From Escherichia phage vB_EcoP_SU7, in sequence record NC_070980.1: 64,000 nucleotides of DNA, one strand, 5' to 3'. This document shows positions 2,114-54,508 of the stretch, in pieces (within the stretch, counting starts at the first letter, position 1; every line of letters starts with the position of its first letter). The notes under the pieces were generated by a model. That model made no database searches, was not told the DNA's origin, and worked only from the letters and a program-made list of their open reading frames with translations. A program made the translations under genes and the position numbers.

Positions 2114-2332
2114 ATGAAAATGATGAAACAGGTAACTTATGGTCTAGCTTGCTTAGGGACAGGTTTTGTGATTTCCACAGCAGTACCTGTAAATGCAGTA
2201 GGCTCTCATTCTATTATAGAAGCTCCTGTAGAGAAGCTTAGTTCTCAATGTAAACAAAGGACCATTCAAAATAATTTGGTTGTTATTTGCCCAGACGCTC
2301 AATCTTCAGCTCTGAGAAAAATTCTTCCTTAA
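2114..2332 (+). CDS. small exported/membrane protein (possible lysis accessory protein)
   Basis: 72 aa with N-terminal hydrophobic segment; RBS AAAGGAG; sits immediately upstream of the lysozyme. Confidence 0.45.
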   Translation: MKMMKQVTYGLACLGTGFVISTAVPVNAVGSHSIIEAPVEKLSSQCKQRTIQNNLVVICPDAQSSALRKILP

Positions 2333-2365
2333 TTGACCTAAAATAACAACAAAAGGAGGTCAAAG

Positions 2366-2857
2366 ATGGACGCTATCGCATTGCCGCCTGTACAGATGAG
2401 CCTAAGTCCGGCTGGTATGGAGTTTATCATGAAGCATGAAGGCATGAGAACTAAAGCCTATAAAGACTCCGCTGGAATCTGGACTATATGTGTAGGGGCT
2501 ACGCGCGATATGAATGGGTATCCAGTAAGACAAGGATTAACGTATTCTATAGAGGATTGTCTAGCTCTGCTAGATAGAGACACACAAGACTCTGTTCGTG
2601 CTACTCAGAAAAACATAAGAGTTCCTATGCTAGCTCATGAATTTGATGCTGTCACTTCTTTCAACTTTAATGTTGGTGGTGGTGCTTTGTCAGCTTCAAA
2701 ACTTAGGAAAGTGATCAACGGAGATGTGAAGGGTGATGTTTACTCAGAGTTCTTACGTTGGGATAAGATAACTGTTAAAGGTGTAAAGCAGCGGAGTCCG
2801 GGACTTCACAATCGCAGGGTTGCAGAAGCAAATCTATACACTACAGGAAAATATTAA
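2366..2857 (+). CDS. GH24 lysozyme (T4/lambda R-type muramidase), probable endolysin
   Basis: HEG…AYKD…G.WTICVG catalytic region; RBS AAAGGAGG; 163 aa. Confidence 0.85.
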   Translation: MDAIALPPVQMSLSPAGMEFIMKHEGMRTKAYKDSAGIWTICVGATRDMNGYPVRQGLTYSIEDCLALLDRDTQDSVRATQKNIRVPMLAHEFDAVTSFNFNVGGGALSASKLRKVINGDVKGDVYSEFLRWDKITVKGVKQRSPGLHNRRVAEANLYTTGKY

Positions 2858-2869
2858 TGGAGGTGCCTT

Positions 2870-3673
2870 TTGGCTATCGAAACAACTGCGGTAGTTACTA
2901 CCGATTTAAACCCCCTATACCCACGGGACAGGGATTATCTTTATGAAGGGGCTGCCCAGATACGACTGGTCAAACAAGTATTAATTAACACCTTTCCTAA
3001 CATCACAGAGCCAGTTCAACTTGACTCAGATTCTTTCAACATCTTAGCAAACAAGGTTTCCTTTACTGGAGATTCTATGGATGTTGGAGGTTTGATGATC
3101 AAAAACTTAACTCCGGGAACTGGTGATAAAGATGCTGTAACCAAAGGTCAGATGGAAGCTTTCATGTTAAACTGGATGCAGAATAAACTCTATCGTATTG
3201 GGGCTTACTATATCACTGAAGAAGATATCAACCCCGGAGATTCTAGCTCTCTTGGTTTTGGTTCTTGGGCTAAAGTAACTGGTGTTGTTATGGGTACTGG
3301 TGTTGTTAACCCTGATGGCTCTGTTCCTAATGCTCAGCGTGTAGAGTTCCAAGCAGGTGGTACTGGTGGTCGTGTATTTAACACAATTCGTGCTGACAAC
3401 ATGCCTCTGACTACAATCAATGGTTCTAGTTTTCAAGTTAGTTCTTATTCTCACTCACATAATATCACAATGGGTCGTGGAGATGCTAGTGGTCACAACA
3501 GCAGTCCTAATTGGTATAGTCCGGGTGGTGGTTATACTCAGGTAACTGACACTAACACCCACTCTCACTCAATTACAGGTTCTGTTAGTTTTGGACGTGA
3601 TGATGTATCAAGACAACCTATTAACACTTTGCCGCCTTTCAGAGCAGCGCATATCTGGAGACGTATTAGCTAA
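2870..3673 (+). CDS. virion structural protein, tail-fibre-like
   Basis: TTG start 7 nt after GGAGG; Gly/Thr/Ser-rich with SHSHNIT and THSHSIT repeats. Confidence 0.5.
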   Translation: MAIETTAVVTTDLNPLYPRDRDYLYEGAAQIRLVKQVLINTFPNITEPVQLDSDSFNILANKVSFTGDSMDVGGLMIKNLTPGTGDKDAVTKGQMEAFMLNWMQNKLYRIGAYYITEEDINPGDSSSLGFGSWAKVTGVVMGTGVVNPDGSVPNAQRVEFQAGGTGGRVFNTIRADNMPLTTINGSSFQVSSYSHSHNITMGRGDASGHNSSPNWYSPGGGYTQVTDTNTHSHSITGSVSFGRDDVSRQPINTLPPFRAAHIWRRIS

Positions 3674-8764: not shown

Positions 8765-9562
8765 ATGACAAAAATAATGGGAGTGTCAGAGCTTGACCCT
8801 TTGGTCCAACAAGCTTCTAAGAAATATGGCATTCCTGCTGCTCTTATACATGCAGTGATTCAGAGAGAGTCTAATGGAAGACCTTCTGTTGAATCTGGTA
8901 CAGGACCAGTAGGTTTAATGCAAATCAGTAAGGGGTTGGCTAAAGATTATGGATATAAACTTGAAGATAGGTTAGACCCTGCAAAGAATATTGACATGGG
9001 TGCTAGATATTTAAGAGATAACCTGAAAGCTTTTGATGGTGATGTGAGGAAGGCTTTGGTGGGGTATTCAGAAGGAACTGGTGGTGCTAAGCAAATGTTT
9101 GCTGGTAAGAGAGGGTTTACACCTCAAGCTTTAGATTCAATGAATAATAAGCTGTTCCTACCATTCTTTGATAAGAACACAGCAGCGGCACAAGTGGCTA
9201 ATCCTGTAGGTGCTTTGAAAGCAGTTCAGCCTGTGGACCAGTTTGATTCTAATACGCTGACTAGAGAAGGTGCTGCAAACGCTCCTACTCAAGCAGAGAT
9301 AGCTGCAAGCAAGGCTGGAGCTTTAGGTGGTCGTCCTGTAGAGTTTTACTCTGATGAACAACCTACTGGGGAAAATCAAAAACCTCAACAGAACTTTGGA
9401 AATGCTGTATTGGCAGCTGCTTCTATGCTTGCAGGAAAACAGCCTAACTCTCAAACCGTACAGAGAGCACATGCCCCTACTCAAGCAGGTTCTCGATACA
9501 GTCCACAAACACAAGCCGTGCTGAGACGTTTGTCTAGCATAGGTACTGATATTTACAGATAA
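8765..9562 (+). CDS. virion-associated lytic transglycosylase (SLT domain)
   Basis: IQRESNGRP…GLMQIS…VGYSEGTGG, the SLT catalytic Glu-Ser and GLMQ motifs. Confidence 0.75.
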   Translation: MTKIMGVSELDPLVQQASKKYGIPAALIHAVIQRESNGRPSVESGTGPVGLMQISKGLAKDYGYKLEDRLDPAKNIDMGARYLRDNLKAFDGDVRKALVGYSEGTGGAKQMFAGKRGFTPQALDSMNNKLFLPFFDKNTAAAQVANPVGALKAVQPVDQFDSNTLTREGAANAPTQAEIAASKAGALGGRPVEFYSDEQPTGENQKPQQNFGNAVLAAASMLAGKQPNSQTVQRAHAPTQAGSRYSPQTQAVLRRLSSIGTDIYR

Positions 9563-9571
9563 GGAGGACGT

Positions 9572-10624
9572 ATGTCTCTTTTCGGTTCTGCTCCTAAATC
9601 TAAGACTACGGTAGCTCCGTCTTCTCAGGTTGATGCTCTTCTGAAACAGATTGTAGCAAATGCTCAGGCTATGAATCAAAACGATCAAGGTTTTATTGGT
9701 CGTAACGTAGCGGGTTTTAATGAAAACCAAACAGCAGCTCTTTCTAATTTAGCAAATTCTAACACACTCAACCAACTCAGTCAGATGTACACCCCTAGAA
9801 CTCAACAAGGGTTGGACCAGATGAATGAGTTGGCTCAGAAATATCAAAACCTAGTTAATAAAGGTGGTATCACTGCTCAGGTTGTTAATAATTTTAGCTC
9901 TGGATTGAATAGCTCTGCTTTAGCTAAGTCTACAGGTAAAGCTGCTGCTAATGTATCTCTTGGTAATGGTTCTGATTCAGGTTCTCTTAGACGTGCTGCT
10001 GCTCAAGGTGCTGCTCTCTCTTCAGCGAATACAAACCTTTCTCGTTCTATTCAAGGTAAAAACATGGGTGTTAGCAATCTTATGAATAACAACTCCTATC
10101 AGCAAGGTTTGCTCAATGCTCAATCGGGTCTAGCAAATCAGAATTTGAATCTAGGAGCTGCTGGGGTACAAGCTGGTCAACAGGCAATACAGAATCAGCT
10201 CACTGCTGGGAATCTTCAACAACAGCAAGATCAACTCCAAGCTAACAACAATTGGGAGAATGCTATTGGCAATCAGCAGTATGGTTGGAATCGGCTTAAC
10301 AACCAGCTTAATGTATTAAACTCAGTAAGCCCAATGGCTGGGTACACCATTACTAACAAAGGTGCTGCCCCTAATGTTTCACAACAAATCCTTGGTGCTG
10401 GGGTTACTGGTCTTGGTATTGCTGGACGTCTAGGTGCTTTTACCCCTAATCAGCAAACTACTAATGCTTGGAACTCATACAATGCTTCTGGAGGTCAAGC
10501 TGGGATGGCTGGTCCTATGATTGGTGGCTCAAACCTGTCTCAACAGAATGGTCAGAGCAACTGGTTATCTACCGCAGGAAGTAATATCTTAGGTGGTGTT
10601 CTAGGAGCCTTTGGAGCAAATTAA
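9572..10624 (+). CDS. Gln/Asn/Gly-rich low-complexity virion protein (paralog A)
   Basis: Starts MSLFGS…KTT; GFNENQTAALSNL; paralogous to the next ORF. Confidence 0.6.
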   Translation: MSLFGSAPKSKTTVAPSSQVDALLKQIVANAQAMNQNDQGFIGRNVAGFNENQTAALSNLANSNTLNQLSQMYTPRTQQGLDQMNELAQKYQNLVNKGGITAQVVNNFSSGLNSSALAKSTGKAAANVSLGNGSDSGSLRRAAAQGAALSSANTNLSRSIQGKNMGVSNLMNNNSYQQGLLNAQSGLANQNLNLGAAGVQAGQQAIQNQLTAGNLQQQQDQLQANNNWENAIGNQQYGWNRLNNQLNVLNSVSPMAGYTITNKGAAPNVSQQILGAGVTGLGIAGRLGAFTPNQQTTNAWNSYNASGGQAGMAGPMIGGSNLSQQNGQSNWLSTAGSNILGGVLGAFGAN

Positions 10625-26212: not shown

Positions 26213-26524
26213 CTACTTCTCCACCACAAAGAGGTTAACTTCAATGAAAGTTTCGTATTGTGTTGACTCCTGCTTACGGGTGTAGTAGAAATGACGACCT
26301 TCTAATGCACCTCCGTACTGAGTGGCACATCTTTTAACCATCTCTTTTATCACATCTACAACTGATTCGCCTTTCCACGGACGTAACCCCTGAGTTGGGA
26401 CTTTTGCTGTACAGGTTACTTGTGTGTAACCTACATCTTGTAGAGATATCTCAAGAATCAGCTTTGCCCAAGCATCAAAATTAAGCTTGGGGTTATATTT
26501 AACTTCAGTTTTGATATCAATCAT
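26213..26524 (-). CDS. hypothetical protein
   Basis: ATG overlaps the polymerase stop (TAATGA). Confidence 0.5.
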   Translation of the reverse strand: MIDIKTEVKYNPKLNFDAWAKLILEISLQDVGYTQVTCTAKVPTQGLRPWKGESVVDVIKEMVKRCATQYGGALEGRHFYYTRKQESTQYETFIEVNLFVVEK

Positions 26525-26676
26525 TAGTGAGTATGATTCCAGTTTAATCCAATCTTACAATCTGATGCAAGAGGACATTCCATCTTGAGGTATTCCCCTG
26601 CTTTACGAACACATTCTTCAGTGAGGGTACGAAGTTTGTTAACATCATCACGATGTACAGTGAACTGACCTTCATC
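26524..26676 (-). CDS. DNA polymerase (family A), exon 2 (C-terminal 50 codons)
   Basis: Encodes DEGQFTVHRDD…KIGLNWNHTH, matching the extreme C-terminus of T7-type Pol A (HDE…G.NW..H). Confidence 0.7.
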   Translation of the reverse strand, partial: DEGQFTVHRDDVNKLRTLTEECVRKAGEYLKMECPLASDCKIGLNWNHTH

Positions 26677-27283
26677 CATTCAGTTATTCCCAAATTACTT
26701 CGGGTGTCGGACTATATCATAACAGCATAGCTAATTTGCTGTTGTTGGCGCTTCGAGGGTTTCCCTGTTAACCCCCTACTCCCTTAGGATAGTCTCTACA
26801 CTTTCCACTTCCGAATCCATCTACAACCGATTCCGAAGCTCACACCAAACTTCTCTGCAAGATGTACACCAGAGCATTCTGTTTCTAGCCAATAAAGCCT
26901 TGCAGCTTCTTGTCTATCTCCATTTCTTCCAGTGTTTGATTCTATTGCATGTTCTGAACCTTCAAGCATTTCTAAGTGCTCAAGATTGGAACAAGCCCTA
27001 TTCTTGCATTTGTGATTTATTTCATAACCATCAGGAATAGAACCAAAAGATTCTTCCCAAACATATCTATGATACATGACCCATTTGCCATCTATTACTT
27101 TTCTGAAATAACCATCTTTGTTAAGTTTGTGTGAGATAGGGATGATACACCCTGTTTCGGTTGTTTCCAAAACAAGAGTTTTCTTAGCCATATCATCTCC
27201 TAATAGCTTAGCTCGGTATTGCCCCCAACTTAATGGTAGGGTTTCACCGAGTTCACCAACTTTTACATGCACAATGAAAGTTT
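26677..27283 (-). mobile_element. group I self-splicing intron with HNH homing endonuclease ORF, inserted in DNA polymerase motif C
   Basis: P1: exon end CAUGCAU pairs with intron GUGCAUG (U.G at splice site); R-like AGAGACUA (26790-26797) and S-like GAUAUAGUCC (26709-26718) form P7; P9 hairpin with GUAA loop; terminal G at 26677; splicing restores …VIDMH|DEGQ…. Confidence 0.7.
26796..27191 (-). CDS. intron-encoded HNH endonuclease
   Basis: YEINHKCKNRACSNLEHLE HNH motif; ATG at 27191 preceded by AGGAG (track start 27272 is GTG inside P1). Confidence 0.65.
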   Translation of the reverse strand: MAKKTLVLETTETGCIIPISHKLNKDGYFRKVIDGKWVMYHRYVWEESFGSIPDGYEINHKCKNRACSNLEHLEMLEGSEHAIESNTGRNGDRQEAARLYWLETECSGVHLAEKFGVSFGIGCRWIRKWKV

Positions 27284-28978
27284 ATGCATGTCAATAACCT
27301 TCGCACAACGAACACCATCCCGCTCAATCCATTTATTGAGGAATAGCATTGCATACTTCATAACAATCGCCCCAGCGCTCTGTAAGAGTGTATTTAAGGC
27401 TTTATGGACCATAACCTTTCCAGTTGCATCTCTTCTCATTGTAATACGACGTCCATCCACACCGTAGATATATCCACTTTGCGCTTTCTCTGTCATACGT
27501 TCAATAAGGATTGCAATACAAGGGTTCTCTGCTAAGAATCTTGCTCTCATGATAGCCCCTTCGTCAGAGCCACCACCTACAATACTTCCTAACTTAGCGT
27601 CACCTGCCCCATAGTTAAAGGCATAGATAAACGTTTTAGCATTATCACGAGTAGGAAGGCCAGCAAGTTTTTGGTTATGTGAGTGAATATCTCCTTCTAA
27701 AAGAATATCTCTATACATAACAGCAGAAGCTAGACCACGTTCAGCTTCTCGTTTCTTAGCCGGGTTGTTTTCTCGCTCTGCTTCAGCGAGCATCTCACGA
27801 CATTCTTTAATAAGGTAGTGAGCTAGCATCCTCAGCTCAAGACCAGAGCCATCGTAACCTAAGAAGATTTCACGACCAGCAGGAACATAGAACTTATAGG
27901 CACCTACAGGTTTGTCTTTCTTGCCCGGTTTTCCCACTTCGTAGATAATGTTAGTACCCTTTCGTACGTAACACCCATCAGGGATATGGTTGGTAATGAT
28001 GAAAGGATGGTTATGACTATCGTCTGAGGAATAGTCAGATTGAAAAAGACTGCGGCACTCGTGACCAAACAAACCGCGAGAAGGAATATTAACAACAATG
28101 CGATGTTTAAAACGAAATGTCGGAGTAGCGCAGCTATTAGCTTCGGCGGACAACTTACCATCTTTACGTTCCTTGTCGATAAGCCCGCTAATCAAACCTA
28201 GCCTGTGAGCCGCTACAACGCGTCTCTTAAGCAAACTTCCTACACCCCCTAGCTCACCCCCAAGCCCCTCTTCAAGAGTCTCCTCAAGGTTTGTAGGGGC
28301 TGTGGGCCACTTGTTTGATGTAGCCAAAGCTTTTTTGATTTCATCAAAGGTTACAGGTTTCTTCCTATTCGGATTAAGACCTAAACCACTGACGTAGGCT
28401 TTCATGTAGTTGACAGTGTGATAACGGAAATGTTTATCCAAAAATCTTCGGATATCAGCATCTATCATCTCCGCTGTCTGTTTCTCTTTAGCATTACCTC
28501 GAATCCAAGCAGAATACCATGCAGAGTATGTACCATACTTCTTCATAGCTCTACGGATTTCAAATGTATTCCAAGGTTTCTTAGAATAATTCCACTCTGG
28601 AGGTATGAAGCCTTCGTCCATCAAGGCTTCTTTGATACGTGCATCTTTCGATGGGTCGAAGTCTACATACTCAACGCAAGTAAACGCCCCACCGATATCT
28701 TCTCTTTTAAGACCAACTCTGTCACAATAGAGCTGAGGCCACTTCTGTAAAGCACCTGACTTCTTAAAAGGTTTCGAATAAGTTGAACCATCCACCCGCA
28801 TTTTGGGGAGGAGAGGAATCAGTTCTTTATCAATATTGACAATAATCTCTTTGAGAAGGTGAACAAACCACCGAGCGTTTCTTCTGTTGAAGTTGACTCC
28901 ATGCTTCGCTTGTTTTGAGATTATATCAGCGACTGTCATCTCCGTTATGAAAGGTAACTTATCAGGGTTATCCATCAC
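27284..28978 (-). CDS. DNA polymerase (family A, T7-like), exon 1, polymerase domain
   Basis: Motif A GYDGSGLELRMLAH; motif B RDNAKTFIYAFNYGAGDAKLG; …LNTLLQSAGA…; ORF stops six codons past the splice point. Confidence 0.85.
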
Positions 28979-29915: not shown

Positions 29916-30233
29916 TCAACTTGAGCTTAAAGCTCCTTTGCGACCGCCTGCTGATTTTCCAGCACGATCTCCACTTTTGCCGCCGTTCGAGCGATTTCGA
30001 GAGACTGATTCAACACGTAAGTTACTTGACGCATTAGAACCTCCCGACTTGATTGATCGTTTGTGTCCAACATCTTTACCTCGGACAGCAGCTTTTCCAT
30101 CGCGCTTTTCAACGATGCGACGTGCACGGTGGCGCTGAGCATCTCCGCTCTTGCTCCCAATTCCCGTTTCACCGCGCTTGATCGCAGTCCTTCTTTCTTG
30201 AGCATAGTCTCTTTTTCCTACATGATCTGCCAT
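29916..30233 (-). CDS. highly basic low-complexity protein
   Basis: 105 aa, Arg/Lys/Gly/Ser-rich; codon choice fits this frame better than two overlapping alternatives. Confidence 0.4.
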   Translation of the reverse strand: MADHVGKRDYAQERRTAIKRGETGIGSKSGDAQRHRARRIVEKRDGKAAVRGKDVGHKRSIKSGGSNASSNLRVESVSRNRSNGGKSGDRAGKSAGGRKGALSSS

Positions 30234-30562
30234 TAGATTTCTCCTGATTCTCTTTGGTTAAAGGTGTGGATGGCGTGGCAATTAGCACACAATATCCTGC
30301 ACTTCCTCATCTCTTCTTTTATTTGAGATAAAGATCTGGTGTGCCCTTTGGAGAGTTCGAATGACTTAGTTAATGGATTTAAATGATCAAACTGAAGAGC
30401 AGATGCGTGGCCTTTAAAACCACATTCAGAGCACCCGTAGAATGTTTTAACTCTACGAATAAAAGCTAGTTGCCTAAACCTTCTTCTCTCATTGTCTGCT
30501 TTTCTCTTATCTCTATTTCCTGGGTCGGCCCATCTACACGAGTCATTGCAAAACCTCTGCAT
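30233..30562 (-). CDS. HNH endonuclease
   Basis: CSECGFKGHASALQFDHLNP…CANCHAIH. Confidence 0.55.
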   Translation of the reverse strand: MQRFCNDSCRWADPGNRDKRKADNERRRFRQLAFIRRVKTFYGCSECGFKGHASALQFDHLNPLTKSFELSKGHTRSLSQIKEEMRKCRILCANCHAIHTFNQRESGEI

Positions 30563-54422: not shown

Positions 54423-54498
54423 TTGGTGCACCCTACAGGATTCGAACCTGTAACCAACGACTTAGAAGGTCGCTGCTCTGTCCATTGAGCTAAGGGTG
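54423..54498 (-). tRNA. tRNA-Arg (anticodon UCU)
   Basis: Minus-strand read GCACCCT-TA-GCTC…GAGC-A-GCGAC-CUUCUAA-GUCGU…ACAGG-UUCGAAU-CCUGU-AGGGUGC-A-CCA folds as a canonical cloverleaf with encoded CCA. Confidence 0.85.
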
Positions 54499-54508
54499 CT
54501 GGATTTGT

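Follow-up and report, generated by a model that had tools for sequence, protein, structure and literature searches.

A predicted mobile group I intron (IA2) encoding an HNH endonuclease in motif C of a Kuravirus-like phage DNA polymerase

Described phage polymerase introns and the insert in vB_EcoP_SU7

The closest described counterparts of the element treated here, a 607-nt insert in the family A DNA polymerase gene of Escherichia phage vB_EcoP_SU7 (NC_070980.1), are the introns that two T7-like phages, phiI and W31, carry in gene 5. The whole stretch of 64,000 nucleotides that was analysed is called the window, and all element coordinates are window positions on its minus strand. The phiI and W31 introns were reported by Bonocora & Shub (2004), and their properties are given as set out in a later account (PMC3428280), according to which they are self-splicing, belong to subgroup IA2, occupy E. 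coli Pol I site 881, do without helix P2, and carry the HNH open reading frame (ORF) for I-TslI in P6a. The same account describes IA2 introns by the extra helices P7.1 and P7.2, which lie between P7 and P3' and are joined by G-U-A, and I-TslI itself is cited as an intron-encoded nicking homing enzyme in PMC8845596. As far as these descriptions go, the window insert is alike in that it parts the motif C codons for His and Asp (Pol I 881/882), does without P2, has the P7.1-GUA-P7.2 arrangement, and houses its HNH ORF inside P6a. This likeness to phiI and W31 (AY769989, AY769990) is one of published description, with sequence homology measured against phages 13a and K1F. The window differs from the T7-like members in its Kuravirus-like host, with a polymerase C-terminus about 30% identical to T7-type gp5, and in having its guide sequence and P10 adapted to the kuravirus exon. 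Judged by its sequence, the window intron is a member of the already described phiI/W31 gene 5 intron family, and we consider it very likely that the insert, which separates the motif C His codon from the Asp codon, is a mobile group I intron of subgroup IA2 and encodes an HNH homing endonuclease.

Other described self-splicing introns with nicking endonucleases are those of SPO1, SP82 and Bastille (I-HmuI, I-HmuII and I-BasI) and of cyanophage Pf-WMP3 (I-PfoP3I) (PMC3428280, PMC8845596). The window intron shares with them the IA2 subgroup, an HNH endonuclease and a polymerase host gene, but is located at Pol I site 881 rather than 674, and a nucleotide search with the window insert found no detectable similarity to these four introns. 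An insert at the same site as in the window is present in phage ECBP2 (JX415536 / NC_018859), which is placed in another genus, Suseptimavirus, and whose record lists a DNA polymerase, an HNH endonuclease and a second DNA polymerase (ECBP2_0050, 0049 and 0048), with no intron annotated. An intron in phiEco32-like, Kuravirus or ECBP2 phages did not come up in our literature searches. The records of 13a and K1F, by contrast, give the polymerase coding sequence (CDS) as a join across the insert.

The 2.8 kb around the insert match 84 phage records, nearly all from Kuravirus-like Escherichia phages, and the source genome is clearly that of a Kuravirus-like (phiEco32-like, Gordonclarkvirinae) E. 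coli phage. As a first-pass annotation of the window had noted, the Pol A ORF (28978/28975..27263; ATG at 28975, with a GTG one codon upstream, and stop at 27265-27263) ends in ...AKVIDMH-KLSLCM, with the stop six codons past the H. The same annotation had assigned the missing Pol A C-terminus to a small ORF further downstream, and in fact a 51-codon ORF (26679..26524) reads M-DEGQFTVH...GLNWNHTH and aligns to T7 gp5. Its ATG is formed by the final three bases of the insert (26679-26677, AUG) and is in frame with exon 2, so that gene callers list exon 2 on its own, as a 51-aa 'DNA polymerase' gene. In the T7-like members the intron mostly ends in AAG.

Seven intron-less records have polymerase exons that are 99.0-99.4% identical to the window, aligned in two pieces with 78% query coverage. 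Here, phage vB_EcoP_HC-25922 (locus L001) aligns from 29200 to 27284 with its positions 501-2417 (99.4%) and from 26676 to 26400 with its positions 2418-2694 (99.6%), leaving no gap in the subject. Because this intron-less allele is contiguous across the site, the insert is delimited as exactly 27283..26677 (607 nt), and the junction of U27284 to G26676 that had been proposed is fixed to the base. The joined exons read CAU|GAU GAA, that is, ...VIDMH|DEGQ..., for which the spliced junction expected from the exon ends is ...GACAUGCAU|GAUGAAGG..., and the intron-less insertion site in HC-25922 is ...GTTATTGACATGCATGATGAAGGA.... Moreover, the spliced CDS (28975..27284 + 26676..26524) has 1845 nt, which is the length of the uninterrupted CDS annotated in HC-25922. 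Pfam recognises DNA_pol_A in the spliced product (E 4.5e-24), and its alignment with T7 gp5, which the first-pass annotation had put forward as a check, is unbroken across VHDEIQ (through AWVHDEIQVGC, E 4e-33). With the insert at H|DE, the His is parted from the catalytic Asp-Glu of motif C. The window polymerase (28975-26524) consists of the polymerase domain only, and its N-terminal 350 aa have little similarity to T7 gp5. All Kuravirus-like phages encode 3'-5' and 5'-3' exonucleases separately (PMC9965538).

Fold of the insert and covariation among homologues

Homologues were collected by an IMG/VR scan for the P7...P7' core motif, from which the members also having the family P4 motif were kept, and phage records were added. 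After removal of two duplicates from 26 loci, there were 24 distinct homologues among the matches listed, and all 24 are inserted at ...H|DE..., the context being VIDMH|DEGQ in the window and AWVH|DEIQ in the T7-like members. The pair counts that follow refer to an alignment of 20 ORF-deleted homologue constructs with the final 3-bp P6. P7.2 and P8 were omitted from these counts because MAFFT left them out of register over the full set, and were checked instead by folding each sequence and by RNAalifold on the T7-like subset.

Over the whole fold, 97.1% of the alignment cells are in standard pairs, whereas sliding the 3' partners by 1-3 columns leaves 31-45%; both sides have changed in 16 of the 45 pairs, and none of 500 shuffles matched the observed values. 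Base-pair covariation backs helices P1, P3, P4, P5, P6, P7, P7.1, P9 and P10, and also P7.2 and P8. For P1, the first-pass annotation had described seven base pairs with a U.G pair at the 5' splice site. While the U.G pair is found in 20/20 homologues, the length was put too low, as the window P1 can form eight pairs (ACAUGCAU/GUGCAUGU), the six inner ones of which are well kept across the homologues. The P1 pair 7-49 changes from G-C to A-U in step with the exon codon, and P1 and P10 both track the exon, such that the kuravirus AUGCAU occurs with the guide GUGCAU and the T7-like GUGCAU with the guide GUGCAC. The inner five pairs of P10 (UUCAU/AUGAA) are 96.8% paired across the homologues, two of them with compensatory changes, and for the sixth, an outer U.G pair, the window sequence is the sole source.

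Compensatory changes are found in six of the seven pairs of P3, where 99.3% of the cells are paired, and P6 pair 106-126 is U-A in 12 constructs and C-G in 8, with no exceptions. A first P6 model with seven positions (CUAAGCU/AGUGUAG) was only 74% paired, and the 3-bp GCU/AGU directly after P4 was adopted in its place. P9, predicted earlier as a hairpin with a GUAA loop, is 100% paired and has compensatory changes in four of six pairs. RNAalifold, run on the 15 non-kuravirus homologues only, returned P7, P7.1, P7.2, P8 and P9 with 13 compensated pairs, and the P7 of this fold is the GACUA/UAGUC pairing that had been proposed for the window. Moreover, GGAGUAGG, from the P7.1-GUA-P7.2 region that characterises subgroup IA2, is invariant across all homologues. 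The terminal G expected before the 3' exon is G26677, the last intron base; its occurrence in all homologues is not independent evidence, because the regular expression used for collecting them required it. The core pattern is found once in the 64-kb window and in 0/100 shuffles, and is not a product of chance. At least 120 IMG/VR viral contigs (loci L013-L132) contain the core motif GAGACTATCC-N55-85-GATATAGTCCGA, and among the matches listed most are without the family P4 motif and the H|DE context, which indicates that an IA2-type core is widespread in phage genes outside this polymerase site.

Two family covariance models, for the 5' and 3' domains, were built from the non-kuravirus homologues only. 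Each gave a single, full-length match in the 64-kb window, at 27291-27207 for the 5' domain (79.6 bits, E 4e-18) and at 26804-26678 for the 3'-domain model R1 (92.7 bits, E 1e-19). The central claim of the first-pass annotation, that motif C is split by a group I intron containing an HNH ORF, is borne out by the intron-less allele, homology, covariation, the family models and the unbroken alignment to T7 gp5.

Several observations nevertheless weigh against this assignment. The scan for group I introns that had been suggested at the outset gave, with the Rfam model (RF00028) at its gathering cut-off, no group I match in the 64-kb window and only a tRNA. A permissive scan of 1.1 kb with the same model was weakly positive, with 26.3 bits (E 2e-4) at 26795-26688 against a cut-off of 50 and a second sub-threshold match of 14.3 bits at 27250-27186, so that this suggestion is upheld for the family-specific models and falls short of the cut-off for Rfam. 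In comparison with the T7-like introns, the window P7.2 is cut to about 5 bp with a 12-nt loop, and the kuravirus L5 is 12 nt longer; the kuravirus P7.2 also is without the conserved GUGAGAUUC-type loop found in the T7-like introns. A local hairpin at 27213-27186 competes with one candidate P6a pairing, and the fold of P6a is putative. As to mobility, no co-conversion tract from an ECBP2-like donor is present in the flanking exons of the window, where agreement with the intron-less Kuravirus allele reaches to within 9 nt of the junction on either side. The RF00028 miss is likely explained by the 396-nt ORF that splits the model. In an ORF-less homologue at the AWVH|DEIQ site (L108), where a short hairpin alone stands in place of the P6-loop ORF, RF00028 scores 61.2 bits against the cut-off of 50 (E 3.9e-15), and Rfam assigns to it the same helices as proposed for the window intron. 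This 225-nt version is located at 9330-9587 of a T7-like IMG/VR contig (3300045988-type), and a 419-nt version with a truncated ORF occurs at another locus (L018); full, decaying and ORF-less stages of the element thus all exist.

The endonuclease, the spread of the intron, and competing explanations

As the first-pass annotation had it, the HNH ORF begins at 27191 with an AGGAG-ATG of its own, and Pfam places HNH_3 at residues 40-82 of the 131-aa product (E 1.6e-12). The ORF starts in the loop beyond P6, and its stop (UAG, 26798-26796) lies one base 3' of the P6 3' strand. Its product shares 98.5% identity with the 'homing endonuclease' of ECBP2, about 82% with that of a second kuravirus variant, 55-63% with the intron ORFs of T7-like phages and Vp_R1, and 45-49% with the HNH genes beside gene 5 in T3-like phages, and a PDB sequence search with it gave no meaningful match. 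A hairpin at 27213-27186 (AGCUAU...AUGGCU, minus strand) has the start codon in its stem and the Shine-Dalgarno AGGAG in its loop, and comparable start-codon hairpins of other sequence occur in 13a, Vp_R1, L076 and other homologues; this hairpin may limit translation of the endonuclease as a translational brake. In work of Bonocora & Shub from 2009, I-TslI and the free-standing T3 gene 5.3 product reportedly cut intron-less polymerase genes at the same position.

We infer splicing and homing of the window intron from homology and from the conservation of its structure. In the proposed course of events, the polymerase gene would be transcribed through the intron, and the RNA would fold into the P1-P10 core, with the guide (27272-27265) pairing to the last exon bases and the U.G pair lying at the splice site. 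An external guanosine would then attack after U27284, and the released exon 1, positioned by P10, would attack after the terminal G26677, whereupon exon ligation would give the messenger RNA for a 614-aa polymerase with its HDE motif whole. The HNH protein, made from its own ribosome-binding site in L6a, would cut or nick intron-less polymerase alleles of co-infecting relatives, and repair of the cut allele would copy the intron in.

Among the phages that carry the insert, the window copy is 98.2% identical to that of ECBP2 over all 607 nt, while the flanking polymerase exons of the two are about 95% identical. A second variant, present in PE006, PAS59, FH3, 1-6af and others, is about 85% identical to the window insert and keeps the same structure, with a compensatory change from C-G to U-A in P8 (window versus L121). 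Further away, the identity is 65-68% over about 98% of the length with the gene 5 inserts of T7-like 13a, VSG32 and others, whose T7-like hosts include Yersinia, Klebsiella and Salmonella phages; identity in the same range to the K1F gene 5 insert extends over about half of the window insert, and Vibrio phage Vp_R1 and Aeromonas phage PT2, a T7-like phage (Studiervirinae), give shorter matches (79-84% of the insert length). Compared with 13a, identity is 29.6% over 125 aa in the C-terminal region of the polymerase and 61.8% in the intron ORF. That the introns resemble each other far more closely than their host genes do speaks for horizontal spread across phage families. Of the 84 related records, those of about 7 distinct phages contain the insert, and phages whose exons are 99.4% identical lack it. 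More than one invasion of the Kuravirus-like phages seems to have taken place: the two variants are only 85% identical, and the window copy is 98% like that of another genus whose exons differ by 5%. The phage families that share this intron infect E. coli and other gamma-proteobacterial hosts. It is fairly probable that one mobile intron lineage has moved between unrelated families, namely the T7-like Autographiviridae, the Kuravirus-like Gordonclarkvirinae and the group of Vibrio phage Vp_R1, by targeting the universally conserved His-Asp-Glu codons of family A polymerases and having its guide and P10 re-tuned to each exon.

The rival that fares best has a true intron with an inactive endonuclease, now inherited only vertically. 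This would account for the missing co-conversion tract beside the insert, yet we judge it unlikely, since the ORF has its full length and its HNH_3 domain is intact, its product is nearly the same as that of ECBP2 though the exons of that phage, from another genus, are about 95% identical, and the insert is patchy among phages with 99% identical exons. There is very little probability, in our estimate, that the insert is the relic of a dead intron, with no splicing and with the polymerase either made in two pieces (of about 570 aa and 51 aa) or replaced by another one. For such a relic speak the in-frame ATG that the last three intron bases supply to exon 2, which in ECBP2 is annotated as the separate gene ECBP2_0048, as well as the score below the Rfam group I cut-off and the truncated P7.2 relative to the T7-like homologues. 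However, all core helices are intact in the window, the break falls between the H and the DE of the catalytic motif, and the 85%-identical variants keep the same structure, inclusive of the compensatory change in P8. Moreover, the guide sequence and P10 fit the kuravirus exons and not the T7-like ones, a match that is expected only under continuing selection for splicing and therefore points to it.

That a free-standing homing-endonuclease gene, or an intein, sits in the polymerase gene with no ribozyme, its expression rescued at the protein level or not at all, is scarcely credible: HNH genes are indeed common as free-standing genes in these phages (for example, ORF 30562..30233), and relatives of the window HNH adjoin gene 5 in T3-like phages, but about 210 nt of non-coding structured RNA around the ORF bear the covariation signal, and the ORF-less version at the same site passes the Rfam group I cut-off. 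An intein is excluded because the frame, read on from exon 1, meets a stop after six codons of the insert, and because the HNH ORF has a separate start codon; an intein, ribosomal bypass and a group II intron were all dropped on the early in-frame stop, the insert length and the covarying group I core.

Once the insert is recognised as an intron, the annotation of the polymerase in these phages, at present split into two or three genes, can be corrected. The split annotation distorts gene counts, core-genome analyses and polymerase phylogenies, and the Kuravirus-like group is under development for therapy. A single group I intron lineage at the same catalytic-site codons, in families with polymerases about 30% identical and with its guide co-adapted to each host gene, would accord with a published proposal, according to which introns and their endonucleases are maintained through their choice of target sequences that are unable to change. 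The finding opens no new question.

Coordinates and further features of the window

Table 1. Elements of the polymerase gene, its predicted intron and the intron-encoded ORF, in window positions
Feature	Position	Strand	Remarks
Exon 1, family A DNA polymerase	27284..28975	-	564 codons, motifs A and B, ends ...VIDMH; start ATG 28975 as annotated in L001
Group I intron, subgroup IA2 (predicted)	26677..27283	-	607 nt; boundaries from the intron-less allele
Exon 2 of the polymerase gene	26524..26676	-	DEGQF...NHTH and stop; catalytic D and E of motif C; aligns to T7 gp5 HDEIQ...NW
HNH homing-endonuclease gene (predicted)	26796..27191	-	131 aa; Shine-Dalgarno AGGAG 27201-27197, AGGAG-N5-ATG
P1, 5' strand	27284..27291	-	final 8 bases of exon 1, ACAUGCAU; 5' splice-site U at U27284
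Internal guide sequence, P1 3' strand	27265..27272	-	GUGCAUGU; U27284.G27272 at the base of P1
P10, 5' strand, loop L1	27274..27279	-	UUUCAU; partner exon 2 AUGAAG, 26675-26670
P2			absent
P3	27260-27254 / 26750-26744	-	GUUGGUG / CGCCAAC
P4-P5 domain	27212..27251	-	P4 CUCGGU (27251-27246) / ACCGAG (27217-27212)
P5	27241-27239 / 27224-27222	-	CCC / GGG; L5 longer by the kuravirus-specific 12 nt
P6	27212-27210 / 26802-26800	-	GCU / AGU; endonuclease ORF in the loop between the strands (P6a/L6a)
P7-P3'-P8 core	26710..26794	-	P7 GACUA (26794-26790) / UAGUC (26714-26710)
P7.1	26789-26780	-	UCC-UAAG-GGA
Linker, P7.1 to P7.2	26779-26777	-	GUA, invariant
P7.2	26776-26755	-	
P8	26742-26722	-	ACAGCA...UGCUGU
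P9 hairpin, GUAA loop	26704-26689	-	CCCGAA-GUAA-UUUGGG; 3' tail to terminal G26677

A second intron in the same polymerase gene and phage group is found in KBNP1711 (L004, NC_023593) and KarlSchell_Bas89, and is absent from the window. Unlike the window intron, it interrupts the motif B Tyr codon (FIYAFN|YGAGD), and its ORF, which encodes 150 aa, is unrelated and matches nothing in Pfam. In KBNP1711 the insert spans about 2210-3060, which is equivalent to a window position of about 27625. Rfam group I hits to this second insert score up to 48.1 and 34.7 bits, and its core reads GAGACUAUCC...GAUAUAGUCCGA; the P7/P7' sequence motif is common to this motif-B intron (also in locus L028) and the window intron.

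About 1.3 kb upstream of the polymerase gene, a free-standing 109-aa ORF (30562..30233, minus strand) matches Pfam HNH weakly (E 2e-4, 21.9 bits, cut-off 21.4), and probably encodes another homing-type endonuclease. The window contains a single tRNA gene, at 54427-54499 on the minus strand (Rfam tRNA, 73.2 bits), with the anticodon loop CUUCUAA and the anticodon UCU (Arg), and one tRNA agrees with the table of Kuravirus-like genomes (PMC9965538).

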